Shown here in pieces: positions 17,410 through 60,178 of a DNA stretch of 64,000 nt. The position numbers and the translations under genes are program-made. The notes under the pieces were generated by a model, which saw only the letters and a list, made by a program, of their open reading frames with translations, was not told the DNA's origin and did not search any database. The stretch is from Candidatus Woesearchaeota archaeon. Its GTDB lineage: Archaea > Nanobdellota > Nanobdellia > SCGC-AAA011-G17 > UBA489. How positions within the stretch are numbered: position 1 is the stretch's first letter; every line of letters begins with the position of its first letter. The stretch is taken from contig CAYITG010000001.1 of the NCBI GenBank assembly GCA_964366415.1, positions 650,195 through 714,194 of the forward strand, in the 5' to 3' direction.

Positions 17410-17410
17410 T

Positions 17411-27448: not shown

Positions 27449-28974
27449 TTTGCTGCATTTGTTGTGTTTATAGTATACAAACAAACTTCTTCGTCCTTTT
27501 TTATTTCTTCAAAATCACATTCTTTAAATCTTTGGCATTGCGGGTCTATGGCAAGGATATTTGTCGTATTAAAAAACATCATTTCATTCCTAAACTCCAT
27601 GCACGTCAGATTGTCATTTTGTTTTGTGAATTTTTCTAACCTTAACAAGTACTCACTAGATGCTAAGGGCGGCGACCATCCTTCCGGAGTGCTTAGATTG
27701 TGGTAAATGCTTGCGTATGCATATAGTGGCTTTGAGTATGGTGTCGGATACTCTGCCGTATCTAAGGGGCCTAGAATAATAAATTTGTCATTTACCTCTG
27801 AAAATATCTCTATCATTCTTTTCTCTAAAGGAGTATTTTCTCTGAACCAGGGTGTGTATAGCATATTCATCCCAACACTCCCTATTATCACTGCAATCAT
27901 GAACCCAGGAATAATTTTTTTCTTTATGCCTTGCATGATCCATTGTTCTTCCTTGAAAAAGACTGTTAAAATGCAAAATAAGAAAAACATCAAATAAGGA
28001 TCTTGAGAAATGTTTCTTAAAAGTGGAATTAAGGTTGTTATTCTCGATGTGTATGCTGCTGCGAGTATGCCTATCGGCACATAAAACATCCTTTCTCTCC
28101 TTGGTGTATCTGTTCTTTTAAGGTAAGCATAGATAAGAATGATTAATATTAGGGGAATAATGAATGCCAGCATGTTTGTTATCATTGTTTCTTTCGTAAA
28201 TTCAAACACTCTCTTTCCTTCATGAAATGCAAGCAAAGAAGAAGCACTTAAACCCTTAAGAAAATCCAGGATCCACCATGACGCCAGCACAAATGATAAC
28301 AAGAAACTACTAACAATCATCATCCTTTCTTTTTTGTCTTTTTTATACAAGAAAAGAGAGAGAAAAAATACTGCTGCTAGAATTGTTTCTTGATAATGTG
28401 TTATTAACATTGCTGCATAAATCACGCTGCTCAAAAGAAAAATCTTGTTTATTCTCTTTTCTTTGAAATACCATATTATAGAGAATAGCAGCACTAATAA
28501 AATCAAATTTAACATTGCATGCTGCCTGCCATTCCTGATCACACTTCCTATCATTGATGCATTTGCGAAAAATAATATAAACCACGCCAGGCTACTTGTT
28601 CTTGTCAGACGCATTCTTTTACCAAAGTAAAGACTGACCAATCCAGCAATGATAAAGAGAGCAACCATAGAAGCATATGTTGCAACATTCACATTACCAA
28701 AAAGCGTATACAAAGGATATGCGAAGAAATACCATCCAGGAGAGTTTATTTGAAGGTGAATGAATCCATTATACCAATAGTGACAAAATTCATGAAAACC
28801 ACATACTTTTAGAAAATGCAGTTGCGCCATATACGCGCTGAGATCATTTGTAGCATCGAATGGAAATGTTCCTATTAATTTTGCCTGATTGACTAATCTT
28901 ACTATCAGATTTATACTTCCTATGAGTATAATGGCAATTTTCCAATGTTTTTCCACTCCTTCTTGGATTGACAT
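27445..28974 (-). CDS. polytopic membrane protein (possible GT-C glycosyltransferase or polymerase-like)
   Basis: It is 509 aa with ~12 TM segments and sits in the glycosylation island. It has no diagnostic motif. Confidence 0.35.
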   Translation of the reverse strand: MSIQEGVEKHWKIAIILIGSINLIVRLVNQAKLIGTFPFDATNDLSAYMAQLHFLKVCGFHEFCHYWYNGFIHLQINSPGWYFFAYPLYTLFGNVNVATYASMVALFIIAGLVSLYFGKRMRLTRTSSLAWFILFFANASMIGSVIRNGRQHAMLNLILLVLLFSIIWYFKEKRINKIFLLSSVIYAAMLITHYQETILAAVFFLSLFLYKKDKKERMMIVSSFLLSFVLASWWILDFLKGLSASSLLAFHEGKRVFEFTKETMITNMLAFIIPLILIILIYAYLKRTDTPRRERMFYVPIGILAAAYTSRITTLIPLLRNISQDPYLMFFLFCILTVFFKEEQWIMQGIKKKIIPGFMIAVIIGSVGMNMLYTPWFRENTPLEKRMIEIFSEVNDKFIILGPLDTAEYPTPYSKPLYAYASIYHNLSTPEGWSPPLASSEYLLRLEKFTKQNDNLTCMEFRNEMMFFNTTNILAIDPQCQRFKECDFEEIKKDEEVCLYTINTTNAAN

Positions 28975-29026
28975 TTCTTTTCCTTTATTCGAAATCCTTT
29001 TATATACTTTGTTTACGCCTTTTATT

Positions 29027-30031
29027 ATGCTCCTTATCTTTTTTTGTGCATTTTTGAGCTTTATCGTAGTTTGGCTTCTTACTCCTTGGCTTATTCGTTA
29101 TTTACGTCGTATTGGACTTCTTGTTCAAGATGCGAATAAGGAACATAAACCTCTTGTTCCCTTGTCAGGAGGGCTTGTTGTTTTTTCTGGCTTTTTTACT
29201 GGCATGATGTTTTTTATTTTTCATCGTACTTTTCTCTCTCAACATGTTACTGGAGGCATCCTTTTAGATACATATGATCTTCTTCTGCTCTTAAGCGGGA
29301 TTACCACTATTCTCATTATTACTTTTGTTGGATTTCTCGATGATCTTGTCATCAAAGCAAATAAAGAAAGTTCTTCTGGTTTACGTCAATGGCAAAAACC
29401 ATTACTCACTCTTGTTGCTGCTGTTCCTTTGATGGTCGTCAATGCAGGTGTTGACACCATGATTGTTCCTTTCATTGGCCGCGTTAATTTTGGCATTCTT
29501 TATCCTCTCTTACTCGTTCCTTTGGGTATTGTTGGGGCTTCGAATATGGTCAATATGCTTGCTGGTTTTAATGGCATGGAAACCGGCATGGGGCTTGTTT
29601 ATATTGGCATGTTGGGACTCTATGCTTATACTCATGATCGCTACCTTGCCGCGTTGATTGCTCTTCTGTTATGGGTTGCCCTCCTTGCGTTTTTTTTCTT
29701 TAACAAATATCCTGCAAAGATTTTGCCGGGAGATTCATTGACTTATCTCTTAGGCGGAAGTTTGGCCGTCATTGCTATCTTGGGAAATATGGAACGAGCC
29801 GCCATTATTGCTTCTATTCCCTTCTTTATTGAATTCCTTTTGAAGATGCGTGGCAAATTAAAAGTAGCTAGTTATGGATACTACAAGAATGGTTGCGTGA
29901 TGTCACATTATACTAAAATCTATTCTATCCCTCATTTCTTCACTATCACCGGCAAATTCACGGAACGACAAATCACTTTGTTTATGATGCTCATCTCTCT
30001 TTTCTTTTCCTTATTGATGTGGGTCGTGTGA
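29027..30031 (+). CDS. UDP-GlcNAc:dolichyl-phosphate GlcNAc-1-phosphate transferase family (AglH/WecA/MraY-like)
   Basis: TM1 is followed by RRIGLLVQDANKEHKPLVPLSGGL. It has a DDxxD-like motif (FLDDLV) and an NMVNMLAGFNGME motif. The start was chosen at the internal ATG because the longer ORF would overlap the 5' end of the divergent gene. Confidence 0.75.
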   Translation: MLLIFFCAFLSFIVVWLLTPWLIRYLRRIGLLVQDANKEHKPLVPLSGGLVVFSGFFTGMMFFIFHRTFLSQHVTGGILLDTYDLLLLLSGITTILIITFVGFLDDLVIKANKESSSGLRQWQKPLLTLVAAVPLMVVNAGVDTMIVPFIGRVNFGILYPLLLVPLGIVGASNMVNMLAGFNGMETGMGLVYIGMLGLYAYTHDRYLAALIALLLWVALLAFFFFNKYPAKILPGDSLTYLLGGSLAVIAILGNMERAAIIASIPFFIEFLLKMRGKLKVASYGYYKNGCVMSHYTKIYSIPHFFTITGKFTERQITLFMMLISLFFSLLMWVV

Positions 30032-32097: not shown

Positions 32098-33858
32098 ATG
32101 GATCATTACATCCTTGGCATGACTTTAGGACACAATGCAACTGCAGCCATTTCTCATAATGGCCATATTATTGCCTGCGCTAGCGAAGAAAGATTTGCAC
32201 GAATAAAAAACATTTATGGCTATCCTGAAAAAGCTGTGCGCTATTGCTTGCATCAGACAGGCATCACCCCTGCGGAATTGAGCTTGGTTGTTTTATCTAG
32301 CCATATCACTCCTCCTTTGAAATTAACTTCTGGAGGATTACGAGAAGAATCGCGTGAGGATTCTTTAAGTTGGTTTACTCTCTTTTCAAAAATTAGGAAT
32401 CATGCAGGAAAAGTGAAGTCCTTTGAAACTTTTGGATATAAAAATATTGCACCTCTTTTATCTAAAATGACTCATAAAAAAAGAGTTGCTATTTTAAGTT
32501 CCTTACTTGAGATACCTCCGGAGAAATTTGTTTCTAGTGAACACCATCTTACTCATGCCTTCTCCGCTCTATTCTCTAGCCCTTTCTTTCAGACATCTCA
32601 ACAGAAAATCCTTGCAATTACTGTTGATGGAGAAGGGGACATGCTCTCTTCAAGTGTAGGCATTTTTGATCCTGCGACCTTATATTATCATCGCATTGCG
32701 CAATCCTCTTACTCGGAATCCTTAGGACATTTTTATAGCGCAGTGACTTCCTATTTGGGAATGAAAGTTTTAGAGCACGAGTATAAAGTTATGGGACTCG
32801 CTCCTTATTCATATACTCCGCAGGCAGATACTCTTTACAATAAACTTAAAGAATACTTATGGGTTGATGATGATTTACGCATTCGAACCAAGATTCATAG
32901 CCATCATTTTCATACCTTATTTCAGGATCTTTTCAAAGGTATACGGTTTGATTATATTGCTGCAGCTGCGCAAAAACTTGTTGAAACACTTCTTGTTGAC
33001 CTTGTTAAAAAAGCAGTCAAAAAAACTGGCTTGTCCACTGTTGTTTTAGCGGGAGGAGTTTTCATGAATGTCAAGGCAAATCAGGAAATCTTGAAATTGG
33101 AAGAAGTGAAAAAACTTTTTATCATGCCTAGTTGTGGAGATGAATCTTTGCCCATTGGTAGCTGCTATTATGGTACATGGCTTCAACACAAGGAATTACT
33201 TAAAACTTTGCAGCCTTTAACAAATCTTTATTTAGGACCAGAGTATTCCCAGGAAGATATCGAACGTGCACTGCAACACCATTCTTTTGATTATAAAAAC
33301 TATGACAAAAAAATTAATATTGAGGTATCGCGATTATTAGCTGAAGGACATATTGTTGCGCGCTTCGATGGCAGAATGGAATTTGGAGCTCGCGCTTTGG
33401 GAAATAGGAGCATCTTAGCCGATGCGTCGAATGGTGATGTTATTGATATTATCAATCGCATGGTTAAGATGAGAGATTTCTGGATGCCTTTTGCTCCTTC
33501 TGTCTTAGAAGAATATGCTCAGCTTTATATTAAAAATCCTGAACTTCTTCAGAAAACTCAACCCTATTTTATGATGCACGCCTTTGAAACTACTCCTTTA
33601 GCGCAAAAAGATTTGAAAGCAGCTATGCACCCTTATGATAAAACTATTCGCCCCCAGATTGTTCACAAGGCTCATAACCCTAAATATCACGAACTCTTAA
33701 CCTATTACATGAAAAGAACAGGAAGATATGGCTTCCTTAATACCTCTTTCAATATTCATGGCGAGCCCATTGTATGCAGCCCTGAAGATGCACTCCATAC
33801 GCTTAAAAATTCTGGTTTACATTATCTTTCTCTGGGTAATTTTTTAGTTTGGAAGTAA
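32098..33858 (+). CDS. carbamoyltransferase (NodU/CmcH family)
   Basis: The N-terminus reads ILGMTLGHNATAAISHNGHIIACASEERFARIKN, the classic NodU start. The length is 586 aa. Confidence 0.8.
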   Translation: MDHYILGMTLGHNATAAISHNGHIIACASEERFARIKNIYGYPEKAVRYCLHQTGITPAELSLVVLSSHITPPLKLTSGGLREESREDSLSWFTLFSKIRNHAGKVKSFETFGYKNIAPLLSKMTHKKRVAILSSLLEIPPEKFVSSEHHLTHAFSALFSSPFFQTSQQKILAITVDGEGDMLSSSVGIFDPATLYYHRIAQSSYSESLGHFYSAVTSYLGMKVLEHEYKVMGLAPYSYTPQADTLYNKLKEYLWVDDDLRIRTKIHSHHFHTLFQDLFKGIRFDYIAAAAQKLVETLLVDLVKKAVKKTGLSTVVLAGGVFMNVKANQEILKLEEVKKLFIMPSCGDESLPIGSCYYGTWLQHKELLKTLQPLTNLYLGPEYSQEDIERALQHHSFDYKNYDKKINIEVSRLLAEGHIVARFDGRMEFGARALGNRSILADASNGDVIDIINRMVKMRDFWMPFAPSVLEEYAQLYIKNPELLQKTQPYFMMHAFETTPLAQKDLKAAMHPYDKTIRPQIVHKAHNPKYHELLTYYMKRTGRYGFLNTSFNIHGEPIVCSPEDALHTLKNSGLHYLSLGNFLVWK

Positions 33859-44518: not shown

Positions 44519-45349
44519 ATGAATATGCTTTTCCGTCGGCCACATGAGAGCAATTCAAAGATTAAGAACTTTTTTTATAGAACCTTTGGAGTCCCTCATG
44601 TGGGCACGCGGTTGAGGGGCCGTGCTGTTTTTTCACTTTTTCCTCATTCAAAAAAACCCCTATGTATACTGGATATAGGATGCGGGGCAGCTTATTTCTC
44701 TTATGAACTACAAAAACACGGACACCATGTTACAAGTCTCGATTCGTTAAAGGGTATGAACAAAGAAGACATCAAAAAATTTGAAACTATCTTCAAGAAA
44801 GGTGGACAAACTTTTCATTTTGTCGAGGGAAATGCAACACATTTGCCTTTTCCAGAAAAATCTTTTGATGTCATTATTATTGCTGATGTGATAGAGCATA
44901 TTGATGATGAAGATAAAGTGATGAAAGAGATACGTCGTGTCTTGAAACCTCAAGGATACTTTATCGCATCTACGCCAGCCACAGGGTTTCATCGTGGAAA
45001 ATTCAAACGTTTTTTCAGATTTTTACATCAACACACTTTCCTCAGGACGCTCCCTTTTTGGGACACTGTTCAGCTGTACCCTGAAAGCCATATGAAATCC
45101 GAAGGGCATCTTCGAGAATATTCTCTTGCATATTGGAAACTGCTTTGCAAACAACACCATTTTTCTTTAGAAGATTGGACATATGAATACAAACTCTTTA
45201 GCGCATTTTTTGTAGAATTATACCACACTTTTGCTTTTATTGATCGCTATGGCAATTATCTTTTTCCGTTCATGTACCCTTTTACCTTTCTTGATTCTCT
45301 CCTACCAATTAAAGGAACTGGCATCGCTATCCGTGCAAGAAAAATTTGA
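44519..45349 (+). CDS. class I SAM-dependent methyltransferase
   Basis: Motif I is ILDIGCGAAYFS and the acidic motif is IIIADVIEHIDD. Confidence 0.75.
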   Translation: MNMLFRRPHESNSKIKNFFYRTFGVPHVGTRLRGRAVFSLFPHSKKPLCILDIGCGAAYFSYELQKHGHHVTSLDSLKGMNKEDIKKFETIFKKGGQTFHFVEGNATHLPFPEKSFDVIIIADVIEHIDDEDKVMKEIRRVLKPQGYFIASTPATGFHRGKFKRFFRFLHQHTFLRTLPFWDTVQLYPESHMKSEGHLREYSLAYWKLLCKQHHFSLEDWTYEYKLFSAFFVELYHTFAFIDRYGNYLFPFMYPFTFLDSLLPIKGTGIAIRARKI

Positions 45350-46848
45350 AACGTTTTATTTATAAACTATCTTTCTCTCTTTTGCTCATGCTTCGTGCGA
45401 CCTTGAAAGGAACATTGTACATCACTTTTAGTTTAGCTCTTGTTAAGTTACTTTCTTTAGTTTATACTTCCATGATAGCTCGCGCTTTAGGGCCAGAAGG
45501 ATTAGGCGCTTTGAATTTAGCCATGCTAATGGTTCCTTGGTTCATTGCAGGCTCCTCTTTCTCCTTGCAAACTGTTGCCACACAAGTCATTGCTTCATTC
45601 AAATCGCGAAAACTCGATATTATACCTGTCATGCGCGGCCTCTTTCTCTTAACTTTTCTTTCTGGATTAGGCGCAACTTTGCTTCATTTTTTTGTCTCTC
45701 CTTTTGTTGCACGATTCTTTTTTCATGATGATCATTTAGCATGGCCCATTGCCTTGGCTTCTCTTATTATCCTTTTTTCTGTGTTGTACAATGTTCTCTT
45801 AGGCGTCGAGCGCGGATTGAAACGCTTTAGATCTTACGCTTTTCTCGAATTCCTTAAACAGATCTTTCTTGTTGTTGCCACTTTTTGCTTTATTGTTTAT
45901 TTTGGTTATGGAGTCAAAGGAGCTCTCTATGCCCTGATTTTTTCTCCAGCTCTTGTCATTTTTCTCTATCTTCTTCGTCATCGTCGATTATTTGCGCATG
46001 GTGCTGTGAATAAGGAAGGGATGCTTTCTTTTGGTTTTTCCCTGACCTTTGTAGGATTACTTCTCTCTTTGTTTTTATCCCTTGATCGATTTATCTTGGG
46101 ATTTTTACAATCTCAAGAAACTGTTGGTTACTACGCTGCGAGTTTGACTCTTCTTAATTTAGGTTTTTATTTTGTTGGTGGAATAAAAAATACGGCTTTT
46201 CCATTTTTGTCTGAAAAATTTTCTCAAACAAAAAACCTCAGTGATCATCGCGTTATTGACTATTTTTCTAAGATCACCACTTATACTCTTCTTTTTATTG
46301 GTGTTATCATGATAGGCCTCATGATGTTTCGTCATGAACTCATTTTTTTAATTTTTGGCAGTGATTATTATCTTTCCATTGACCTTTTGATGATTATGAT
46401 TTTTTCTCTTCCTTTTTTGACTCTTTACATTCTTATTCACACTTTGTCTATCAGCATTCAACGTATTCGTGAAGCAACTCTTGCTAGCGCCATAGCACTC
46501 ATTGTTGGGGTCGTTATCTTTTATATTTTTACTCGCACTTGGAATGTGACTGGAACTGCTTATGCTCTTGTCGTGAGTTCTATGATTCTTAGCATTTTTT
46601 ATTATATTCTTACTATGACGTCTGTTAGAATTCGCTTTGCACCTGTTTTTTTCGTTGTTTTATACGTTACTCTTTTTACCTTTGCCCTCTCTTTTGTAGA
46701 AGGTTCTTTTTTGTTTCGCGTGTTTATTTTCCTCTTTGCTCATCTTGTTTATCTATTACTTTCTCTTCTTTTTCGATTTATTGAATGGGCAGAACTTCTT
46801 TTTGCTTTCTCGAGAATCTCTGCTTATTTTCGCTCTTTCATACGATAA
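45346..46848 (+). CDS. MOP-superfamily polysaccharide flippase (Wzx-like)
   Basis: It is 500 aa with ~12-14 TM segments. The N-terminus has the flippase-typical ...MIARALGPEGLGALNLAM. Confidence 0.6.
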   Translation: MKRFIYKLSFSLLLMLRATLKGTLYITFSLALVKLLSLVYTSMIARALGPEGLGALNLAMLMVPWFIAGSSFSLQTVATQVIASFKSRKLDIIPVMRGLFLLTFLSGLGATLLHFFVSPFVARFFFHDDHLAWPIALASLIILFSVLYNVLLGVERGLKRFRSYAFLEFLKQIFLVVATFCFIVYFGYGVKGALYALIFSPALVIFLYLLRHRRLFAHGAVNKEGMLSFGFSLTFVGLLLSLFLSLDRFILGFLQSQETVGYYAASLTLLNLGFYFVGGIKNTAFPFLSEKFSQTKNLSDHRVIDYFSKITTYTLLFIGVIMIGLMMFRHELIFLIFGSDYYLSIDLLMIMIFSLPFLTLYILIHTLSISIQRIREATLASAIALIVGVVIFYIFTRTWNVTGTAYALVVSSMILSIFYYILTMTSVRIRFAPVFFVVLYVTLFTFALSFVEGSFLFRVFIFLFAHLVYLLLSLLFRFIEWAELLFAFSRISAYFRSFIR

Positions 46849-46890
46849 GAAAGGACACATTTTTAAATATCCTTACTTGGACTTATTTTT

Positions 46891-47817
46891 ATGAAACCTC
46901 GAAAATGTACTATCAGTGCTATTGTACCCGTCTATAATGGAGAATCTTTTATTGCAGAAACTCTCCAAAGCCTTCTTGACCAATCTAGACCTTTCGATGA
47001 AATTATCGTTGTTGATGATGGCAGTACAGATAGAACTCCTACTATCGTTAATACTTTCAAAAAAGTCAGATTGATTCGCACTTCTCATGTTGAACGCGTT
47101 GCTGCCCGCAATATCGGATGGAGAGCTTCCAAAGGAAACATCATTGCCTTTATTGACAGCGATCTTGTTCTTGTCAAAGACTGGCTTAAAGAAGTCCTTA
47201 AGGGATTTGATCAAGGTCATGTTGCTGTTGTTGATCGAAGAGCAGTGTATAAACCTACAACCTACATTGCAAAAATGAACGACCATTTTTTTGATCTTCG
47301 CTTTACTGAAAAATATAAACCCTTTACTGCATGGGTTATTCAACGTGATGTTTTTGAAAAACTAGGAGGATTGGATGAAAGCGCTATTGGTTTCGAAGAT
47401 ATTAATCTCGGAGATGCCCTGTACAAAAGTGGTTATGACATCTATTTTGCACAGAAAGCCATAGCTTATCACAAAGGAGAACCAACCAATTTCAGAACTG
47501 AAATGCGCAGACATTTTTGGTTTGGCTCTCATGCCTTACCTTATTGGAAAAAGAGAAGGCCTTTAGGGAAACCCCTCAAAGTTGTTCTTTTTTCTCTCTT
47601 AACTTTGTTCTTTTTTATTTTTCCTCTTTGGATACTTAGCATTATCTTTTTGCTTTATTCTTATGTTTTTTTGAAGGATCTCTTTGTCTGGAAGATGAAC
47701 CTTCGTTATCTGTTTGTTCATCCTTTCATTGCCGTTGCTTCTGAATTTGCTTATGCTTATGGTGTTCTCTATGGATTTCTTTTTGGACCTCTAACCTTGG
47801 TTAGAAAACATATCTGA
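46891..47817 (+). CDS. GT2 glycosyltransferase with C-terminal TM helices (copy A)
   Basis: It has SAIVPVYNGESFIAETLQSL, VVDDGSTDRT and DSD. The C-terminal two thirds are identical to copy B. Confidence 0.75.
   Translation: MKPRKCTISAIVPVYNGESFIAETLQSLLDQSRPFDEIIVVDDGSTDRTPTIVNTFKKVRLIRTSHVERVAARNIGWRASKGNIIAFIDSDLVLVKDWLKEVLKGFDQGHVAVVDRRAVYKPTTYIAKMNDHFFDLRFTEKYKPFTAWVIQRDVFEKLGGLDESAIGFEDINLGDALYKSGYDIYFAQKAIAYHKGEPTNFRTEMRRHFWFGSHALPYWKKRRPLGKPLKVVLFSLLTLFFFIFPLWILSIIFLLYSYVFLKDLFVWKMNLRYLFVHPFIAVASEFAYAYGVLYGFLFGPLTLVRKHI
47124..47749 (+). repeat. 626-bp block 100% identical to 48094..48719 (segmental duplication or gene conversion inside tandem GT2 genes)
   Basis: Line-by-line comparison at an offset of 970 nt shows no mismatches. 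Identity starts at AGCTTCCAAAGG and ends at CTGAATTTG. Confidence 0.9.
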
Positions 47818-47860
47818 TGATGAGATACTTTTATAAATAAATAATTTATCAATCTTCTTT

Positions 47861-48820
47861 GTGAAAAAAAAGTATACTGTCAGTGCCATCGTTCCCGTCA
47901 ATAATGGTGCTTCTTATATTGCAGAAACTATTCAAGGCCTTCTTGATCAATCTAGACATTTCGATGAAATTATCGTCATTGATGGTAAAAGCACAGATGA
48001 TACTGCAAACATTGTCAAAAAATTCAAAGGGGTGAAGTTTATTCAGCTTGGCTATGACCCTGAAAGGATTGCAAAACGTAACATTGCTTGGAAAGCTTCC
48101 AAAGGAAACATCATTGCCTTTATTGACAGCGATCTTGTTCTTGTCAAAGACTGGCTTAAAGAAGTCCTTAAGGGATTTGATCAAGGTCATGTTGCTGTTG
48201 TTGATCGAAGAGCAGTGTATAAACCTACAACCTACATTGCAAAAATGAACGACCATTTTTTTGATCTTCGCTTTACTGAAAAATATAAACCCTTTACTGC
48301 ATGGGTTATTCAACGTGATGTTTTTGAAAAACTAGGAGGATTGGATGAAAGCGCTATTGGTTTCGAAGATATTAATCTCGGAGATGCCCTGTACAAAAGT
48401 GGTTATGACATCTATTTTGCACAGAAAGCCATAGCTTATCACAAAGGAGAACCAACCAATTTCAGAACTGAAATGCGCAGACATTTTTGGTTTGGCTCTC
48501 ATGCCTTACCTTATTGGAAAAAGAGAAGGCCTTTAGGGAAACCCCTCAAAGTTGTTCTTTTTTCTCTCTTAACTTTGTTCTTTTTTATTTTTCCTCTTTG
48601 GATACTTAGCATTATCTTTTTGCTTTATTCTTATGTTTTTTTGAAGGATCTCTTTGTCTGGAAGATGAACCTTCGTTATCTGTTTGTTCATCCTTTCATT
48701 GCCGTTGCTTCTGAATTTGTTTATGCCTGGGGATTTGCTTATTCTTTGATTAAAGGGCCTATTACTCACGCTCGTTCGAGTGATGCAGAAGTAACAAAAC
48801 AAACTGCATCTCACCAGTAG
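47861..48820 (+). CDS. GT2 glycosyltransferase with C-terminal TM helices (copy B, GTG start)
   Basis: The N-terminal ~90 aa are ~60% identical to copy A. Residues from ~aa 79 onward are identical to copy A up to the extreme C-terminus. Confidence 0.75.
   Translation: MKKKYTVSAIVPVNNGASYIAETIQGLLDQSRHFDEIIVIDGKSTDDTANIVKKFKGVKFIQLGYDPERIAKRNIAWKASKGNIIAFIDSDLVLVKDWLKEVLKGFDQGHVAVVDRRAVYKPTTYIAKMNDHFFDLRFTEKYKPFTAWVIQRDVFEKLGGLDESAIGFEDINLGDALYKSGYDIYFAQKAIAYHKGEPTNFRTEMRRHFWFGSHALPYWKKRRPLGKPLKVVLFSLLTLFFFIFPLWILSIIFLLYSYVFLKDLFVWKMNLRYLFVHPFIAVASEFVYAWGFAYSLIKGPITHARSSDAEVTKQTASHQ
48094..48719 (+). repeat. second copy of the 626-bp identical block
   Basis: See 47124..47749. Confidence 0.9.
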
Positions 48821-48866: not shown

Positions 48867-49880
48867 ATGAGTACTGTTATTAAGGTATCTGTTCCTGGAC
48901 GTGTTTGCTTAGTTGGAGAACATTGTGATTATGCTAAGGGAATGTCTATTGCCTTACCACTTCAACACCATATCACTTTGTATGGAGAAAAACGCCCTGA
49001 TCAAACTGTTTTATTTCTTACTGCTATGGAAGATAATGCATATAAATTAAGTTTTCCTCTTCATGATATTTCCATACCGGATGATAATCCTTTACGTTAT
49101 TCTGCTGCTGTTGTTGATGTCATGAAAAATCGTGGTTATTCTATCGGAGGCGTTGAAGCCATAATGAAGAGCAATTTACCTTTTAAAAAAGGCTTGGCCT
49201 CTTCTGCCGCTGTTGAAGTTGCCACTGTTCGCCTTTTCGATACACTTTATCGCCTTGATTTATCTCTCGATCAGATTGCTGAAATTGCTTATGATGCAGA
49301 ACGAAATCGTCTTGGAATTGGTTGCGGCAGAATGGACCAACTTGTTGCTGCTTATGAATCTTTGATAGCGATAAATTATGAAAAAGATACACCTACTGTA
49401 ACACGATTACAACATTCTCCCGTTCCTATGTATCTTCTTGTAGGTATTCCTCTTGTTACTAAACGCGCTTTACAGCTGATGCTTACGGAATCTAATCGTG
49501 CTTATTTACACCCGCAATCGCAAACAGATCGCGACTTTGGCAGAGCACTTGATGACCTGATCCCCAATGAAGTTGTTCGCCCATTCATTGACGCAGTTCA
49601 GCAAGGTAATATTTCAGCTGTTGGTGATCTTTTCAGAAAAAACCAAGAAATTTATGATCAATATTTTGTTCCCGTCTGTGAAAGCTTTGATTCTCCCATC
49701 CTTTCTTCTTTTTTGAAAATTGCACTACAACATGGAAGCATTGGGGAGAAATGGACTGGCGCTGGAGGTTCAGGCGCTTTTATCTGTCTCGCTGAATCTG
49801 AGGAAGCAAGAATAGACCTTCAACAAGCTATAGAACGCCAATCTTCTATTGATGTTAAATTTGTAACTGCAACTCTCTAA
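48867..49880 (+). CDS. GHMP-family sugar kinase, galactokinase-like (sugar-1-kinase)
   Basis: Motif 1 PGRVCLVGEHCDY resembles the GalK signature GRVNLIGEHTDY. Motif 2 is KKGLASSAAV. Confidence 0.75.
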   Translation: MSTVIKVSVPGRVCLVGEHCDYAKGMSIALPLQHHITLYGEKRPDQTVLFLTAMEDNAYKLSFPLHDISIPDDNPLRYSAAVVDVMKNRGYSIGGVEAIMKSNLPFKKGLASSAAVEVATVRLFDTLYRLDLSLDQIAEIAYDAERNRLGIGCGRMDQLVAAYESLIAINYEKDTPTVTRLQHSPVPMYLLVGIPLVTKRALQLMLTESNRAYLHPQSQTDRDFGRALDDLIPNEVVRPFIDAVQQGNISAVGDLFRKNQEIYDQYFVPVCESFDSPILSSFLKIALQHGSIGEKWTGAGGSGAFICLAESEEARIDLQQAIERQSSIDVKFVTATL

Positions 49881-49882
49881 CT

Positions 49883-50848
49883 ATGACTCTTTTCCTCCTT
49901 GATTTACCGCAACAAAGAATTTCTCTTGAAGAGCTATGTTTCTCTTTAACATCCTGTCAACATACCTTTACTGAAGAAATTCGTGACACTTACCGAGAAC
50001 TTATTCAACGTTTTTATGAAGATCATCGAAAAAGCACTCCACTACAATATGACCCTGATTCTAACCCTATTTTTACCTTAGATTCTTTTTGTTCTTCTGG
50101 AAAAAGAACCTTTTCTTTAGGCAGTGTTGAATTTAAGGACTATTTTGCTTTACGCAATCTTCTTTATCGGACAAAGGAAGATGGACGTTTACTTCGACAA
50201 TTTGTTCCTTTAAGCATGACTGCTACTTTAGAAACTGCTGACCATTTTTTGGTGCTTGGACATCGCAAAGGAAATCATCTTTCTGATCGCTATTTACCCC
50301 CTGCTGGTTTTTTGCAGTATTGTTCAAATATCACTTCGGATTACTTCAGACAGAAATGCGCTGAAGAATTTTCTGAGGAGTTAGGCATAGATTTTAATGA
50401 TGTTTCCTATATTGGCCTGACAGGTGATACTCGAGATTCGTTCCTCGACACTTGTACTTTTTATGGCCAGACTTCTTTGACAAGAGCCGAAGTTCAGAAA
50501 GCTTGGGAGTCTCGCGGTGCTAAGGATGAACATTCTCATCTTATTTACATTCCTTCTTCCTTAGAAGCCATTAGTGCATTCCTCCATGGAACTTTTACTG
50601 GAGAAGTTAATCCTTCTATGAATATTCATTTTGAGAATGGTATTTGTATTTCCGGTCCTCGAGAAATTTTAGGCAAACGCTATCAACAGATTGAAAATGG
50701 TGTTGGCGCTTATGCAGCTTTCCTTTCTTTGTCTCAACCTCTTGCTGAAGTCCAGTCATTACTTCATTCCCTTGCTTCTGCAGGCATTATTGAAGGAGTT
50801 GTAATGAAAAATATTAATGATGAACAGCCCTATCTTCTTTCTTCTTAA
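49883..50848 (+). CDS. hypothetical protein (possible degenerate Nudix-like fold)
   Basis: It starts 2 nt after the kinase gene. The segment LVLGHRKG..YLPPAGFL...DYFRQKCAEEFSEELGI loosely resembles the Nudix box but lacks canonical residues. Confidence 0.35.
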   Translation: MTLFLLDLPQQRISLEELCFSLTSCQHTFTEEIRDTYRELIQRFYEDHRKSTPLQYDPDSNPIFTLDSFCSSGKRTFSLGSVEFKDYFALRNLLYRTKEDGRLLRQFVPLSMTATLETADHFLVLGHRKGNHLSDRYLPPAGFLQYCSNITSDYFRQKCAEEFSEELGIDFNDVSYIGLTGDTRDSFLDTCTFYGQTSLTRAEVQKAWESRGAKDEHSHLIYIPSSLEAISAFLHGTFTGEVNPSMNIHFENGICISGPREILGKRYQQIENGVGAYAAFLSLSQPLAEVQSLLHSLASAGIIEGVVMKNINDEQPYLLSS

Positions 50849-51644: not shown

Positions 51645-53171
51645 TTAAATGCTTTGCCCCATTGAATGTTCAATACTCTTTTTTGGATCTGTGCGATCAT
51701 GCCTCTGCAGCCCGTATCTGGTGCGTATTTTATCATCAATTTCTTGACGTAATTCAAGGAAATCTTGTGCGCTCACCTTTTCTGTTCTAACATATACTAC
51801 ATTCTCGCCGGGAGCTGTTTTGTATGGTGCTGTCTCTCTTGCAAAATCAATGGCACGCACATATAATTCTCCTTCTCCTAAAACGCGTTGGAATTCATCA
51901 CTATGCTTTCCTCTATTTGGCCTCAGACCATCATACACGCGCGATCCTGGATAGGGGGTTAAAATTGTCAAATCGAAATCCCACTTCATGTTATACTGTT
52001 GTGCAAGTTTTCCTAATCTTTCGAGGAATTTTTCTGTCATGCGAATATCGTCTACTGTTTCTGTTGGTTGCCCCATCATTGTCAACGCTTTCATTTCTAT
52101 TCCATGCTCAAAAGCCAATTTTGTAGCTTGATAGTTAATCTCTGCCGTTGTATTCTTTTTCACGTAATCTTTCAGTATTCTATCTGATCCACTTTCGAAA
52201 CCTGAGAGCACAATATGAAACCCGGCACGCTTCATCGCAGGCGCAACTTCCGGATGCCTCACAAAAAGTTCCGATTTAATAAATCCCCTATATGAGAATG
52301 GCCTCTCATCTTTTGCCATTCTTTCTTTGTTATTTCTCTCAAGAACTTCCAACAATTCCATTGTTGCTCTTGCGTCTAAGTTTAGTTCATCATCATAAAA
52401 CATGAATCCTGTTACCGAAGGAAATTTTTCATTAATGTGGTTTAGCTCTGCGACAACTCTTTCAGGGCTATATGCACGCCTTCTTCCCGTCGTTTTACTT
52501 TTTACGAAACGGTATTGAGGAATATTTCTCCCAGAACAAAAATTACAGTTAAAGGGACAACCGCGCTGAGATAGGATGCTTGTAGCTGGACCGCCATCAA
52601 TATCAAATTTTGGAGACCCATCGTCTTTGAATAAATAAGCTTGCATATCGATAAGCTCACGTGGCAAGAAAGGAAGCTTATCAAGATCATCGAATGTTCC
52701 AGAATATACCCACCTTGAGGACTGAGGTTTATTTAATCTCTTTAATGCTTCAAAGATTCCTAATTCTTCTCCTTCAATGATCTGGTCGAATATCTCCAAA
52801 GAATGGAAATTTGCATCACCTTCATATAACTCACTTTCTTTCACCATAGACTCTAATCTTCTTTTTCTTAGACTTGCAAACATTGTTGCATGCGGACCAC
52901 CAATCACTACATTGGCATGCGGATGCACTGCTTTAATTGATGAAAGTATACTTACTGCGTAACTAAACTGCGGAGATGTTGCTGTAATTCCATAAATATC
53001 AAAATTTTGTTGCGCAATTTGTTGCGCTTTGGTTTCATAGTCTCCATACCCTGCCAAATCAAAAAGCTTTACTTCATGCCCTGCTTTTTGCGCTATTCCT
53101 GCAATACTTAGCAGACCGAGTGAGAAAAATACTTTATCATCTGTAAGAAAAAATGACGGCGGATTAATCAA
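51645..53171 (-). CDS. B12-binding domain radical SAM protein
   Basis: An N-terminal B12-binding-like domain is followed by GCPFNCNFCSG (Cx3Cx2C). Confidence 0.8.
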   Translation of the reverse strand: MINPPSFFLTDDKVFFSLGLLSIAGIAQKAGHEVKLFDLAGYGDYETKAQQIAQQNFDIYGITATSPQFSYAVSILSSIKAVHPHANVVIGGPHATMFASLRKRRLESMVKESELYEGDANFHSLEIFDQIIEGEELGIFEALKRLNKPQSSRWVYSGTFDDLDKLPFLPRELIDMQAYLFKDDGSPKFDIDGGPATSILSQRGCPFNCNFCSGRNIPQYRFVKSKTTGRRRAYSPERVVAELNHINEKFPSVTGFMFYDDELNLDARATMELLEVLERNNKERMAKDERPFSYRGFIKSELFVRHPEVAPAMKRAGFHIVLSGFESGSDRILKDYVKKNTTAEINYQATKLAFEHGIEMKALTMMGQPTETVDDIRMTEKFLERLGKLAQQYNMKWDFDLTILTPYPGSRVYDGLRPNRGKHSDEFQRVLGEGELYVRAIDFARETAPYKTAPGENVVYVRTEKVSAQDFLELRQEIDDKIRTRYGLQRHDRTDPKKSIEHSMGQSI

Positions 53172-53338: not shown

Positions 53339-54706
53339 TTATTTTTTTGTTGTCAAACCGCGCTTTAGAAGGTAATCAATGACTTTTATGTCAAGGAACC
53401 TGTCTGTTCGTGTGCCGACAAAAGGAATTGCTTTTCTCATTAAAGCTGCATAAAAGTCATTATATGCAGAAAATTGTTTCCTTTTATCAAATACATACTT
53501 TTTTTTACTTTGCACATACATCGCCTCTACACTTTCATTATATGTGCCATCTGCGCATTTTATTTCGCAAGGGAATTTTCCTTCCTCTTCCAGGATTGTT
53601 ACTTTTGAAGGAAGGAGCTCTGACAATAATCTTAATACTTTATCGTTCCATCCTACCACAGGAAGAATGTCTCGCCAACATGGTTTTCCTATGTACGTTT
53701 GATCCTTGTTTTTAAGATTCATTCCATAACTTGTCATGAATCCACCTGTTGGCAGTTGGTGACGAATTAACCATTGTATATCTCTCTCAACTATCTTTTT
53801 CTCCCCGAGCAAGAAAAGCGCACGAGTAATATCGGCGCTTCCTGCAATAAATATAGGATACTTAAAACGTTTCCATCCTTTCTCCGTCTTCAAATAACCA
53901 AAATCATATCCTCCTTTTGCATTACGCATCTTCTTCAAAAATACTCCTGCTTGCTGAGCTGCTCTTAGATACTTCTTATCTTTTGTTATAGCATAGACTT
54001 TTAGTAATGCAGGAATGCATCTTGCTGTATAGATGCTGATGATATGCTTGTGCTTTTCTGTTTGATAAATGCCTCCGGCCATTGTTGTTGTGTCTTGATG
54101 CTGAAGGATATACTCTGCATTTGCAATAACTACCTCATAATATTTCTGTTCTTTGGTAAGATCATATATCATTAATAATAACTCTATGAGTGTCGCAATC
54201 TTGTTTGGAACATGAAGATTTTGTTTGTCATAATGATACTGACGGAAGATTCCTGTTTTTTTGTCATAAAGAAAATTAAAATGGTAGTTATCGAGATTCT
54301 TCTTTGCCGCCAGAAGATATTTTGTTCCTTTTTCCCTTAGGTATCTTGCCAGATATGCTAGTCCTAAGGCTGCGGCTGTATCATGCGGTGTGCTGCCTCT
54401 TCCGAGAGATGGATTCGCTTCAAAGTGTGAGTTGAGGAAGATACCATTCGACAATTGATTCTTCAGAAGATCATCTCCTGCTTGCTGAGCTAGCGCAAGG
54501 AACTTGTCATTCTTTGTTTTTTTGTGTAGTCTGAGAAATGCGTCTATTAACCCTTCATAACACCAGTTCATGCTTGGGCCGGTATAATTAAGACAATCTT
54601 GCCAGTAATGGATGACTGGCCCTGCATATCCTCCTGGTTGATGCATCGTTTTCAACCACGCTACATTTTTTGCTATAGCATCTTTGAGGGCAGTTTTTTT
54701 CTTCAT
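53339..54706 (-). CDS. hypothetical protein with QxxxGG(F/Y) repeats (alpha/alpha-toroid, prenyltransferase/terpene-cyclase-like)
   Basis: Repeated motifs include QPGGYAGP, QLSNGIF, TMAGGIYQ, NAKGGYDFG and QLPTGGFMTSYG. It has no signal peptide. Confidence 0.35.
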   Translation of the reverse strand: MKKKTALKDAIAKNVAWLKTMHQPGGYAGPVIHYWQDCLNYTGPSMNWCYEGLIDAFLRLHKKTKNDKFLALAQQAGDDLLKNQLSNGIFLNSHFEANPSLGRGSTPHDTAAALGLAYLARYLREKGTKYLLAAKKNLDNYHFNFLYDKKTGIFRQYHYDKQNLHVPNKIATLIELLLMIYDLTKEQKYYEVVIANAEYILQHQDTTTMAGGIYQTEKHKHIISIYTARCIPALLKVYAITKDKKYLRAAQQAGVFLKKMRNAKGGYDFGYLKTEKGWKRFKYPIFIAGSADITRALFLLGEKKIVERDIQWLIRHQLPTGGFMTSYGMNLKNKDQTYIGKPCWRDILPVVGWNDKVLRLLSELLPSKVTILEEEGKFPCEIKCADGTYNESVEAMYVQSKKKYVFDKRKQFSAYNDFYAALMRKAIPFVGTRTDRFLDIKVIDYLLKRGLTTKK

Positions 54707-54763: not shown

Positions 54764-56884
54764 ATGAAACAGGTTTTCCGCGATCGACGGGGTAAAGTCA
54801 AAATTGAGGATCTTCCACCACCCTCATTACAAGAAGGAAGAGTCTTAGTGAAAACACATTATTCACTTATCAGCAGCGGAACTGAAACGCGGTCTCTTCG
54901 CGACTCACAACGCGGAGGCGTTGTTGAACATGCTGTGAAGAAGCGTAAACAAGTACGCGCTTTCCTTGGACATTCTTTACGCGTTGACCCTGCTTATGCA
55001 TATCGTCTCTTTAAGGGAAAAGCCCATGAGCTAGCAACGTTAGGTTATAGTTGTGTAGGAGAAGTTATTGACAAGGATCCTGCTCTGAGCGATATCAACA
55101 AAGGCGATCTTGTTGTGTGTGGCGGATACGAATATGCACACCATGCCGATATTGTTTCTGTTCCACGTAATCTTGTCTATCCTGTCCCTGCTGGTGTTGA
55201 TCTTAAAGAAGCTACATTTTCTCCTCTTGGAGGAATAGCACTACATGCCATTCGAAGAGCACAACTTTCTCTCGGTGAAAGCGTGCTTGTTGTAGGGCTG
55301 GGATTAATCGGACAATTGGCAATCCAACTTTTGCGCCTGCAGGGATGCACTGTAGTAGGCATTGATCCTTCTGCAGCGAAAACAAAAATCTCTCATGCTT
55401 TTGGGGCTAAAACCTACACTGCAAAAAAAGATTTTGCATCTTCTGTTCTTGCCTTGAATGGTGGACCTTTCGATGTTGCTCTTTTGTGCACGAAGATTGA
55501 TGATCCTGCGAACCTTGATGAAATTATTGATGTTGTTCGCAACAAAGGAAAGCTTGTTGCAATAGGAGACTTATTAGTGCCTTACCCTTTCTCGAAACTT
55601 GTGAGAAAAGAAATTGACATTTTAGTTTCTCGCTCCCATGGTCCTGGACGTTTTGACAAAGAATATGAAGAAAAAGGCAAAATTTATCCTCTTGAACATG
55701 TACGCTGGACAAGCGATAGAAACATCAATGAGATCCTTCATTTACTTAAAGAAAAGAAACTTTCTGTTCGTGAACTTATCAGCGCAGAGTTTGATATGAC
55801 TCAAGCAGAAAAAGCATATTCTTTGTTGATGAAACGACCAGATACTATTGGTGTTGTGCTTGCTTATGAAAAGAATAATCCTACACAAACAATGTATCCC
55901 GTCCTTCCGATCACTAAGAAGAAAGGAACTTTGGGCGTTGCTTTGGCTGGATTGGGTGCACATGCTCAAACTGTTTTATTACCTTATATTATGAAAGAAC
56001 CATCATTTTCTCTTCAGAATGTTGTGAGCTCAAATGGGCTCAGAGCTAAACAACTTGCCACTCTTTTCAAGGCGCGATCTTGCACTACTCGTTTTGCAGA
56101 TGCACTCACTGATCCAGAAGTTGACCTTGTTTTTATTTCCACGAAGAACAAACAACATGCAGAGATGACTGTTCAAGCTGCTGAAGCTGGAAAACATATT
56201 TATCTAGAAAAACCTATGGCCCTTACTGAAGAAGAATGCGAACGTATTGTCGATGCCGTGAAGAAACACAACATCATTTTTACTCTTGGGTTGAGTAGGC
56301 GCTTCGCTCCTCTTGTTGAAAAAGCAAAATCTTTGATGCTAGAACATCAACCTGCTGCTATTAATTATCATCTTGTTGAACAGAAGAAACAGGAAAAAGA
56401 GTGGGTTGATGAAGAGGGAGGGAGAATTGTTTACATGTTTTGCCATCTTATTGATGTAGCAACCTATCTTCTTGGCAGTGAACCAACTTCTATTTATGCA
56501 ACACGGGGACAGACCCAAGATAGTGTTGTTGCTCTTGTGACTTATGAGAATGGTTCTCTTTTAAATATTTTTTATCATATCTCTGCAGCACCATTTCATA
56601 AAGAACACATCGAGATTCATCAGGGAGACACTTCTCTTTTTATTACTGATTTTAAAGATCTTCTCATTCATGCTGGAAACAAGCAACACTCTTTATCTCT
56701 TAAACAGGCTGATAAAGGGCATACCAACCAACTCCGTGAGTTTGCTAAAGTATTGCAAGGTCAACCTGCTCCTCTTGTTACTCTGAACGACGCTGTCCGC
56801 GCAACTCTTTTCCCTTTTTATGTGATCAAAAGCCTTCATACAGGTAAGCTAGTTTCTTTTGATTGGAAACAATTTTTGAAGTGA
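54764..56884 (+). CDS. bi-domain oxidoreductase (N-terminal MDR/zinc-dehydrogenase-like plus C-terminal Gfo/Idh/MocA-like)
   Basis: The N-terminus has SLISSGTETRSL and a Rossmann motif VLVVGLGLIGQLAIQLL. The C-terminal half has LGVALAGLGAHAQTVLLPYI and ...DLVFISTKNKQHAEM. Confidence 0.7.
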   Translation: MKQVFRDRRGKVKIEDLPPPSLQEGRVLVKTHYSLISSGTETRSLRDSQRGGVVEHAVKKRKQVRAFLGHSLRVDPAYAYRLFKGKAHELATLGYSCVGEVIDKDPALSDINKGDLVVCGGYEYAHHADIVSVPRNLVYPVPAGVDLKEATFSPLGGIALHAIRRAQLSLGESVLVVGLGLIGQLAIQLLRLQGCTVVGIDPSAAKTKISHAFGAKTYTAKKDFASSVLALNGGPFDVALLCTKIDDPANLDEIIDVVRNKGKLVAIGDLLVPYPFSKLVRKEIDILVSRSHGPGRFDKEYEEKGKIYPLEHVRWTSDRNINEILHLLKEKKLSVRELISAEFDMTQAEKAYSLLMKRPDTIGVVLAYEKNNPTQTMYPVLPITKKKGTLGVALAGLGAHAQTVLLPYIMKEPSFSLQNVVSSNGLRAKQLATLFKARSCTTRFADALTDPEVDLVFISTKNKQHAEMTVQAAEAGKHIYLEKPMALTEEECERIVDAVKKHNIIFTLGLSRRFAPLVEKAKSLMLEHQPAAINYHLVEQKKQEKEWVDEEGGRIVYMFCHLIDVATYLLGSEPTSIYATRGQTQDSVVALVTYENGSLLNIFYHISAAPFHKEHIEIHQGDTSLFITDFKDLLIHAGNKQHSLSLKQADKGHTNQLREFAKVLQGQPAPLVTLNDAVRATLFPFYVIKSLHTGKLVSFDWKQFLK

Positions 56885-59134: not shown

Positions 59135-60178
59135 ATGAAACAAATAGTCAGAGTAGGAAATGCCATTGCTATTCGCGATGTACCCATTCCTCACGCTTCG
59201 CCAGGATTTATTGTAGTACGAAATTCCTATTCTTTAATCAGTACTGGTACAGAAACGAGATCTTTACGAAACTCTTCTGCTTTAGTTAAAGGCATCACAA
59301 CCATATCCAGAAAGATTTTTGCACCTCAGAAAGCATATGCTAATCTTGGATACACCTGTGCAGGTGTCATAGAAGAGATTGGAGAGGGCGTACATGGATT
59401 TGCTCTTGGTGATCGTGTTTTGTGTGTTGGCTTTGATTATGCAGTTCATGCCGAAATTGTAAAAGTCCCTGCTCCTTTAGTTTTCCATCTTCCGCAGACT
59501 ATTTCTTTTACTCATGCTCCTTTTGCTGCCCTAGGAAGTGTGGCGCTACATGCTCTTCGCAGAAGCAATATCGCTTTTGGTGAAAAAGCCCTCGTGATAG
59601 GATTGGGACTTACTGGACAACTCTTAGTCAGACTTTTACTGCTTAATGGCTGCTCTGTTATTGGTGTTGATCCTAATGATTATAAGATTACATTAGCGCA
59701 AAAAGCTGGCGGAGAGTATATTAAAGGAAAACGTGACTTTGCTCAAACTGTTCTGGATAAAACAGGACATGGTGTTGATGTTGCTTTTGTGTGCACCGAT
59801 ATGCACGACAACGAAAATCTTGAGGAAATTATGACTACGATACGTGATAGAGGAAAACTTGTTGCTGTAGCTAACATCACTTGTTCTTTGCCCTTCCCAC
59901 TTTTTTTTCGTAAGGAACTTGACCTTATTGTATCGCGATCCTTTGGCCCTGGACGTTTTGACAAAGAATATGAGGAAAAAGGCATTGATTATCCTTTAGG
60001 ATATGTGAGATGGACTGAACGGAGAAACATCGAAGAAGTTCTTCGTCTTCTTGGCGAGCAGAAACTTGTTGTTGATCCTTTGATCAGTGCAGAGTATCCT
60101 ATCCAACATGCTCAACAAGCATATCATTCCCTGCTTGGAAGAACTAGGCCCGTGGCGCTATTATTAAAATATTCTTAG
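59135..60178 (+). CDS. MDR (zinc-binding alcohol dehydrogenase-like) oxidoreductase, paralog of the N-terminal half of 54764..56884
   Basis: The N-terminus SYSLISTGTETRSL and the Rossmann motif LVIGLGLTGQLLVRLL are shared with the bi-domain enzyme. The C-terminus has RSFGPGRFDKEYEEKG, as in its paralog. Confidence 0.7.
   Translation: MKQIVRVGNAIAIRDVPIPHASPGFIVVRNSYSLISTGTETRSLRNSSALVKGITTISRKIFAPQKAYANLGYTCAGVIEEIGEGVHGFALGDRVLCVGFDYAVHAEIVKVPAPLVFHLPQTISFTHAPFAALGSVALHALRRSNIAFGEKALVIGLGLTGQLLVRLLLLNGCSVIGVDPNDYKITLAQKAGGEYIKGKRDFAQTVLDKTGHGVDVAFVCTDMHDNENLEEIMTTIRDRGKLVAVANITCSLPFPLFFRKELDLIVSRSFGPGRFDKEYEEKGIDYPLGYVRWTERRNIEEVLRLLGEQKLVVDPLISAEYPIQHAQQAYHSLLGRTRPVALLLKYS

Follow-up and report, generated by a model that had tools for sequence, protein, structure and literature searches.

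Recombination between paralogous glycosyltransferase genes is known from the Neisseria lgt locus, in which it involves the pairs lgtA/lgtD and lgtB/lgtE. In archaea, gene conversion with concerted evolution was reportedly described by Archibald and Roger in 2002 for chaperonin paralogues. The gene conversion and concerted evolution of prokaryotic duplicated genes have been surveyed (PMC6053082), and in the archaeon Haloferax volcanii gene conversion has been the subject of experiments (PMC8223754). The futA and futB genes of Helicobacter pylori, which code for paralogous glycosyltransferases of surface glycans, likewise recombine with each other (PMC2583950). Literature searches turned up no direct precedent for glycosyltransferase gene conversion in archaea. 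Here we describe two tandem genes for family 2 glycosyltransferases (GT2), termed A and B, in a 64,000-nt stretch of contig CAYITG010000001.1 from a Candidatus Woesearchaeota archaeon of the Hainich groundwater (the window, hereafter). The genes are identical over an internal block of 626 bp. With considerable though not full confidence, we consider this block to be best explained by a recent, non-reciprocal gene conversion in which gene B was copied into gene A.

As in other prokaryotic conversion systems, copying between paralogues of the same genome would have been non-reciprocal and confined to a tract bounded by shared homology, and the paralogues are closer to each other within the genome than orthologues are between genomes. 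Unlike in whole-gene concerted evolution, A and B are homogenised in an internal segment only, with both ends old. Unlike in long-lasting concerted evolution, the pattern points to a single, very recent event over shorter, older tracts, here in an uncultivated DPANN host. The locus resembles futA/futB and lgt in that paralogous surface-glycan glycosyltransferases appear to swap segments to give chimeric enzymes, and in that hybrid single genes also occur. However, recombination in the futA/futB and lgt pairs goes along with phase-variable repeats and a demonstrated glycan change, whereas A and B have no known simple-sequence tract or phenotype. Moreover, A and B encode archaeal GT2 enzymes, whereas the pathogen enzymes belong to GT10 or GT25. 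Cassette variation of the pilE/pilS type, which combines one expressed locus with many silent donors that lack promoters, was considered and rejected, since only two copies are present in 64 kb and both are complete open reading frames (ORFs) with start codons and TATA-like elements. Conversion between tandem paralogues is a known process, and the window is a clean new example in an unusual organism.

The two copies of the block (47124–47749 and 48094–48719) match at 626 of 626 bases, and the very next base at each end differs. This is the sole long repeat found in the window. The heads of the two genes, each of 233 nt, are 70.4% identical in nucleotide sequence and 62.3% identical in amino acid sequence, with two compensating 3-nt indels. 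Their nonsynonymous (dN) and synonymous (dS) divergences are 0.26 and ∼0.96, respectively. In the tails, which are 68 and 101 nt long and 46% identical, dS is saturated. Between these ends, there are no differences in 208 codons, and the 95% upper bound on block divergence is ∼0.5% (0 differences in 626 sites). These values confirm the base-for-base identity reported in the initial annotation, which is now seen to be a maximal exact block, and they agree with its description of diverged 5′ ends (∼60% amino acid identity) and differing 3′ ends. The GTG start that it gave for the second gene was also confirmed, and this GTG/Val start is common to the B orthologues of three related contigs (L006, L009, and L011). 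The block had been described as the C-terminal catalytic half plus the membrane tail. It does hold both, but it starts at residue 79 and so also includes the DSD (DXD) motif at residues 89–91.

Chance was rejected as a source of the identity: At the flank identity of 0.70, 626 straight matches have a probability of ∼1e-97, and at an identity of 0.94, the top value for the paralogue core in any relative, the probability is still only ∼1e-17. A mobile element or noncoding repeat was also rejected, since both genes read through the block in frame and single-copy GT2 orthologues are homologous to it throughout.

A comparison with related metagenome contigs, suggested in the initial annotation, yielded unconverted A-B tandems, single-copy hybrids, and varied breakpoints. 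An A-type gene followed by a B-type gene was found in L006, L009, and L011, which come from other Hainich wells or samples, and in L035 from another project. These additional tandem pairs were obtained by exact-protein look-ups; scans of genomes and metagenome contigs for further tandem pairs returned only single-copy relatives. In L034, A and B are both present with two small genes in between, and more distant relatives have a single gene. The named homologues belong to metagenome-assembled genomes (MAGs) of Woesearchaeota, Nanoarchaeota, and other DPANN archaea. Judged by these gene orders, in which a GHMP kinase gene comes after the tandem (L006, L009, L011, and L035), and by the types of the gene segments, the A-B tandem is shown to be ancestral. 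By their divergence outside the block, A and B are old paralogues.

On the basis of alignment, the A and B types are distinguishable in every protein segment. The head signature is VVDDGSTD...VERVAARN in the A type and IDGxSTD...DPERIAKRN in the B type, the middle signature is PFTLW...GIEDADLADR versus PFTAW...GFEDINLGDA, and the tail signature is LVRKHI versus HARSSDA.... For the segment comparisons, the block without its first ∼170 nt (the conserved core) was treated as the middle and membrane part. There, the A and B genes of unconverted pairs are only 57%–58% identical, with saturated synonymous sites (dS >1.8).

The direction of the exchange can be read from the segments of the window genes. 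The head of gene A is 75% identical in nucleotide sequence to the A gene of L011, 70% to gene B of the window, and 65% to the B gene of L011. Relative to the A gene of L011, this head has a dN of 0.14, a dS of 1.5, and a dN/dS ratio of ∼0.09. The ratio for this pair of heads indicates purifying selection, so gene A was evidently a working gene. The tail of gene A is 78% identical to that of the A gene of L011 and 46% identical to that of gene B. Its middle and membrane part, in contrast, is 74%–76% identical to the B orthologues (the B genes of L006 and L009 and the hybrid gene L012_x) and 59%–64% identical to the A genes of L006, L009, and L011. Gene B is of the B type in head, middle, membrane part, and tail (its tail is 68%–69% identical to those of the B genes of L006 and L009), and it contains no A-type segment. 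Typing of the protein segments agrees with these nucleotide identities: The head and tail of gene A are A-type, and its block is B-type.

Neighbor-joining trees were built from the same segments, and their bootstrap values, read after re-rooting, are approximate. For the middle and membrane part, a clade of the A genes of L006, L009, and L011 excludes gene A of the window with 99% support, and gene A groups with the B clade. The head of gene A is placed with the A orthologues. For the tail, gene A falls inside the A clade (89%) and groups with the A gene of L011 (80%). Because the segment identities and trees are discordant in this way, the block in A appears to have been copied from B, with B left unaltered. 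The proposal of recent gene conversion in the initial annotation is borne out by this discordance and by the relatives L006, L009, L011, and L035, which are not homogenised in the block region.

The ends of the tract were examined by using the A gene of L011 as a stand-in for the preconversion gene A and comparing it with gene B of the window. The tract occupies alignment columns 260–885. The longest exact runs between these two sequences are at columns 279–313 (35 nt) and 315–334 (20 nt) on the left and at columns 849–868 (20 nt) and 870–883 (14 nt) on the right. The tract thereby ends on the only good islands of A/B homology, of which one is the conserved core that follows helix alpha3 and the other is the region encoding HPFIAVASEF. 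This is expected for homology-dependent recombination, and it also implies that 626 bp may slightly overstate the length of the true tract. In the proposed mechanism, non-reciprocal homologous recombination would have overwritten gene A with as much as 626 bp of gene B sequence, and the simplest trigger would be a break in A that was repaired from the neighbouring B template. The molecular route that we infer is break repair or synthesis-dependent strand annealing. The portion of gene A from the DXD motif to the membrane helices would have been replaced, and residues 1–78 and the final 22 residues would have been kept.

Several considerations weigh against this interpretation. The placements of the short head and tail have moderate bootstrap support (69%–89%). 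The nearest unconverted A gene, that of L011, is just 75%–78% identical in the flanks, such that the preconversion state is deduced from a fairly distant relative, and its sequence comes from a 2-kb contig of 3x coverage. The 626-bp repeat exceeds the read length, and bulge removal during assembly could erase a few real differences. Because 2x150 bp reads cannot phase a repeat of this length, an identity of exactly 100% is an upper bound only. Finally, both copies are known from assembled contigs only.

These last points bear on whether the arrangement is an assembly artefact, in which the assembler threaded gene A through the middle of gene B or collapsed near-identical copies into one consensus written twice. 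An exact-protein look-up located the A and B proteins on groundwater metagenome contigs from well H52 at Hainich, in the 0.1 and 0.2 μm filter fractions, and on an NCBI contig of 755,958 bp. The Hainich assemblies were made per sample with metaSPAdes from 2x150 bp Illumina reads (PMC8672522). A repeat longer than the 150-nt reads, metaSPAdes bulge removal, and a contig coverage of just ∼12–13x would favor such an error, and the agreeing assemblies come from one pipeline and from replicate samples of a single well. Nonetheless, contigs from the separate assemblies ERZ1292616 and ERZ1292617 match the window at 100% of positions across 17–21 kb that include the tandem. A contig from ERZ1292620, with two single-nucleotide polymorphisms (SNPs) upstream that distinguish it, spans the flippase gene and all of gene A and runs into the head of gene B. 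Contig L003, from another sample, likewise carries the junction where the A tail meets the B head. At least three short-read assemblies, each made from a single sample, thus reproduce the arrangement and its chimeric junctions. Since only observed k-mers can enter a de Bruijn contig, the chimeric junctions must exist in the reads. At 47123|47124 and 47749|47750, an A-type head and an A-type tail abut a block that is letter-identical to that of B, and the block-facing side of the right junction is ∼40% diverged from A-type sequence. In addition, tandems with the same flanks occur in relatives, in which the copies have diverged too far to be mistaken for one another, and no A-type middle matching this genome was found among the homologues; the closest A-type sequence, P0006, is from a different organism. 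We therefore regard an artefact as improbable, but assembly could still have suppressed a few SNPs within the block. The collapse risk raised in the initial annotation stands to the extent that exact identity, as opposed to near identity, is not provable with short reads, and it is reduced for the arrangement and its junctions, which recur among the per-sample assemblies. When a MAG contains a repeat longer than the reads, copy number and exact identity in the deposited assembly are to be treated with care.

Alternatively, gene A might have arisen as a recent duplicate of B and later acquired A-type sequence at both ends, or the block might have come horizontally from the B gene of another strain. 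The locus does take up foreign alleles: The identity between L006 and L009 is 99.8% as far as nucleotide 48 of gene B and drops to ∼80% after it. However, an A-type first gene with the same flanking genes is ancestral (L011, L006, L009, and L035), and duplication followed by replacement would require two additional exchanges, placed precisely enough to give back an A head and an A tail. An external donor must be 100% identical to the resident B gene, whereas the nearest other B genes are 74%–85% identical. The simplest donor is the adjacent gene, and both variants are unlikely. It is also conceivable that selection on the sequence itself, for example through an embedded RNA or regulatory element or extreme codon constraint, preserved the identity without recombination. 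The first ∼170 nt of the block do encode the most conserved segment of the family, in which A and B share 93% of amino acids even in unconverted pairs. However, synonymous sites in this segment have reached saturation, both among orthologues and among unconverted paralogues (dS 1.2 to >2), and unconverted A and B proteins differ by ∼40% in their middle and membrane parts. At gathering thresholds, Rfam revealed no RNA element in the window, and there are no tRNAs either. The dS values effectively refute an explanation by selection only, to which we assign almost no weight.

Further exchanges are seen elsewhere in the family. In L006, the A and B genes (L006:2816–4758) are 94% identical with a dS of 0.28 in the ∼170-nt core after the DXD region (columns 260–430), whereas orthologues compared over this core are 82%–88% identical with dS values of 1.2–2.8. 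This suggests a shorter and older conversion tract in a sister lineage. The window itself may carry the remnant of an earlier exchange: The first ∼150 nt of the heads (46891–47040 and 47861–48010) are 82% identical over ∼90 sites, versus 69%–72% for A and B compared across genomes.

Two single-copy genes are hybrids. L012_x (L012:251–1207) is 90%–98% identical to the A-like gene L015_x up to approximately column 270 and is B-like thereafter, with a breakpoint at nucleotides ∼270–315 in the conserved core. An A-side gene lies upstream and the B-side GHMP kinase gene downstream, flanks that fit an origin of L012_x by deletion within an A-B tandem that fused the two genes; its contig is 1.3 kb long with 3x coverage, and a chimeric assembly is possible. 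L007_x (L007:6001–6951) is A-like to approximately column 540 and then 84%–93% identical to the B gene of L035, with a breakpoint at nucleotides ∼540–585. With A-type 5′ and B-type 3′ parts, both genes resemble the Lepore-type fusions that arise by unequal crossing-over of tandem paralogues. In contrast, the window keeps both genes and has a double-ended tract with no deletion.

Between L006 (3802–4758) and L009 (6001–6954), the abrupt switch in the alignment marks a strain-level breakpoint of recombination, and it lies within the gene orthologous to the donor. Before the switch, which comes after nucleotide 48 of gene B, these otherwise near-identical strains differ at 8 of 3849 positions, and farther downstream the two contigs are unrelated. 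As judged from such breakpoints, exchanges are shown to recur at the A/B locus in this family. The independent hybrids and the strain-level breakpoint point to repeated recombination, in keeping with the hotspot that the initial annotation offered as an explanation. Among a handful of contigs, no fewer than four independent events were counted, and their breakpoints fall at three different places. A broader hypothesis, which we consider possible but doubtful, is that the A and B lineages of groundwater DPANN archaea form a two-gene system of module exchange. Internal tracts, head-to-tail fusions, and allele swaps at two conserved islands would then create new combinations of head and body that diversify an S-layer or surface glycan facing hosts and viruses.

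Direct traces of gene recombination in DPANN archaea are scarce because genomes are small, paralogues are few, and there is no genetic system. The locus would provide a datable and directional example of homologous recombination within a DPANN genome. It also indicates that a surface-glycan island can be mosaic at the level of gene segments, as are bacterial O-antigen and lipooligosaccharide loci.

Both proteins are classified as GT2 enzymes by profile (Pfam PF00535, gathering cut-off 23.3 bits), by motif, and by predicted GT-A fold. An AlphaFold2 model of the gene A product has this fold, with a mean predicted local distance difference test score of 88.6 and a predicted template modeling score of 0.84. 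Foldseek matched the model to K4CP, WrtF, TarS, SpsA, and PcManGT with probabilities of 1.00 and template modeling scores of 0.5–0.58. In the model, the block starts where helix alpha3 finishes and is followed closely by strand beta4 and the DSD motif. Beta-alpha units one to three of the nucleotide-binding subdomain make up the unconverted head. Within the block are the DXD motif, E169-D170, the interface helices, and the hydrophobic helices of the C terminus. Neither D89-S90-D91 nor E169-D170 varies among 22 homologues.

The GT-A fold, the DXD motif, and the hydrophobic C-terminal helices are also found in GT2 enzymes of archaeal N-glycosylation (the AglJ, AglD, and AglG types, and PcManGT, PDB 6yv7), and the neighbourhood with genes for AglB/STT3, a flippase, and an S-layer-like protein is similar as well. 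Unlike AglJ and AglG, the window genes score below curated family thresholds: The NCBIfam equivalog cut-offs were not reached for AglJ (TIGR04182, 27.5 versus 325 bits) or AglG (NF041394, 38.4 versus 440 bits), and the score for EpsD was far below its cut-off. The best NCBIfam match was MftF, with 99.5 bits versus a cut-off of 280. Profile matches in the PDB to GtrB (5ekp) and DPMS (5mlz) cover the N-terminal part only (residues 6–135). For a specific enzyme assignment, NCBIfam, PDB sequence search, and Foldseek thus gave generic GT2 similarity only.

From the fold, the hydrophobic C terminus, and the neighbourhood, we infer that A and B are inverting transferases associated with the membrane and that their substrates are lipid-linked glycan intermediates. 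The net effect of the exchange is apparently that gene A has lost its own acceptor-side and membrane part and is identical to B there. The two enzymes are predicted to share these parts after conversion and to differ just in the nucleotide-binding head and the last residues. Conversion may thereby have given rise to a new specificity or have simply homogenised the pair. If chimeric enzymes do differ in specificity, then the pair would be a natural domain-swap experiment in GT2. A shuffling of donor-specificity modules, as the initial annotation put it, is speculation, and the block also takes in the DXD motif.

The TATA-box-like element TTTTAAATAT upstream of gene A aligns with a counterpart, TTATAAATAA, upstream of gene B, and each is located 21–30 nt before its start codon. 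This suggests separate TATA-like promoters and leaderless transcripts for A and B, and the equal spacing suggests that the original duplication took in the promoter. A scan for bacterial-type promoters and terminators found none, with fewer matches than in shuffled sequence, a method that is uninformative for an archaeon. The two antisense ORFs noted in the initial annotation are present, and their lack of Pfam matches and their positions wholly opposite the GT2 genes fit its view of them as shadow ORFs. The features of the locus and its surroundings are listed in Table 1.

Table 1. Coordinates of the GT2 tandem, its segments, and other features of the window.
Feature	Position	Strand	Remarks
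GT2 gene A	46891–47817	+	308 aa, ATG start; PF00535 117.2 bits; probable chimeric conversion recipient
GT2 gene B	47861–48820	+	319 aa, GTG start; PF00535 91.5 bits; probable conversion donor
A-type head of gene A	46891–47123	+	residues 1–78; beta1-alpha1-beta2-alpha2-beta3-alpha3, nucleotide-binding subdomain
Putative converted tract in gene A, B-type origin	47124–47749	+	residues 79–286; DSD motif, E169-D170, interface and membrane helices
A-type tail of gene A	47750–47817	+	final 22 residues and stop codon
A/B spacer	47818–47860	+	43 nt; contains TATA-like TTATAAATAA at 47831–47840
Putative donor copy of 626-bp block	48094–48719	+	in gene B
B-type tail of gene B	48720–48820	+	HARSSDAEV...
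TATA-box-like element TTTTAAATAT	46861–46870	+	21–30 nt upstream of gene A start; read from alignment
Antisense shadow ORF	46873–47343	-	156 aa; no Pfam match; wholly opposite gene A
Antisense shadow ORF	47849–48313	-	154 aa; no Pfam match; wholly opposite gene B
Wzx-like polysaccharide flippase	45346–46848	+	upstream flank; Pfam Polysacc_synt and Polysacc_synt_3
GHMP sugar kinase, galactokinase-like	48867–49880	+	downstream flank; Pfam GHMP_kinases_N and GalKase_gal_bdg
S-layer-like protein	7958–10639		
AglB/STT3 oligosaccharyltransferase	17354–20029		
GT4-family initiating phosphoglycosyltransferase	28889–30031		
Carbamoyltransferase	32098–33858		
B12-binding radical SAM enzymes (at least three)	21731–23299, 23354–24772, 51645–53171		

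The genes that flank the tandem are partly conserved. A flippase-type gene upstream of the GT2 locus also occurs in L009, L011, L013, and L015, and a GHMP kinase gene follows the B-side gene in L006, L009, and L012. About a dozen glycosyltransferases are encoded in the window, which also has two Wzx-like flippases, methyltransferases, PMT_2-type membrane transferases, and GT9 "heptosyltransferase-like" genes. Because the window holds S-layer-like, AglB/STT3, flippase, and glycosyltransferase genes, the A/B pair is placed within an archaeal island for surface or N-linked glycans. This surface-glycan island (7958–63070) extends over more than 40 kb, a large share of a genome that is probably smaller than 1 Mb.

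Several other genes of the island were noted. An ORF of 321 aa at 49883–50848 has no Pfam or NCBIfam match; a 331-aa gene of L009 with no recorded Pfam match occupies the same position after the GHMP kinase gene, and the likeness is one of size and place. On the reverse strand, a 455-aa ORF (53339–54706) has weak similarity to a LanM cyclase region and to pectate lyase, both below curated cut-offs, and a gene of this type is also present in L015. A direct repeat of 104 nt with 78% identity (55607–55710 and 59912–60015) lies inside the ORFs at 54764–56884 and 59135–60178, the former of which has GFO_IDH_MocA and ADH_zinc_N domains.

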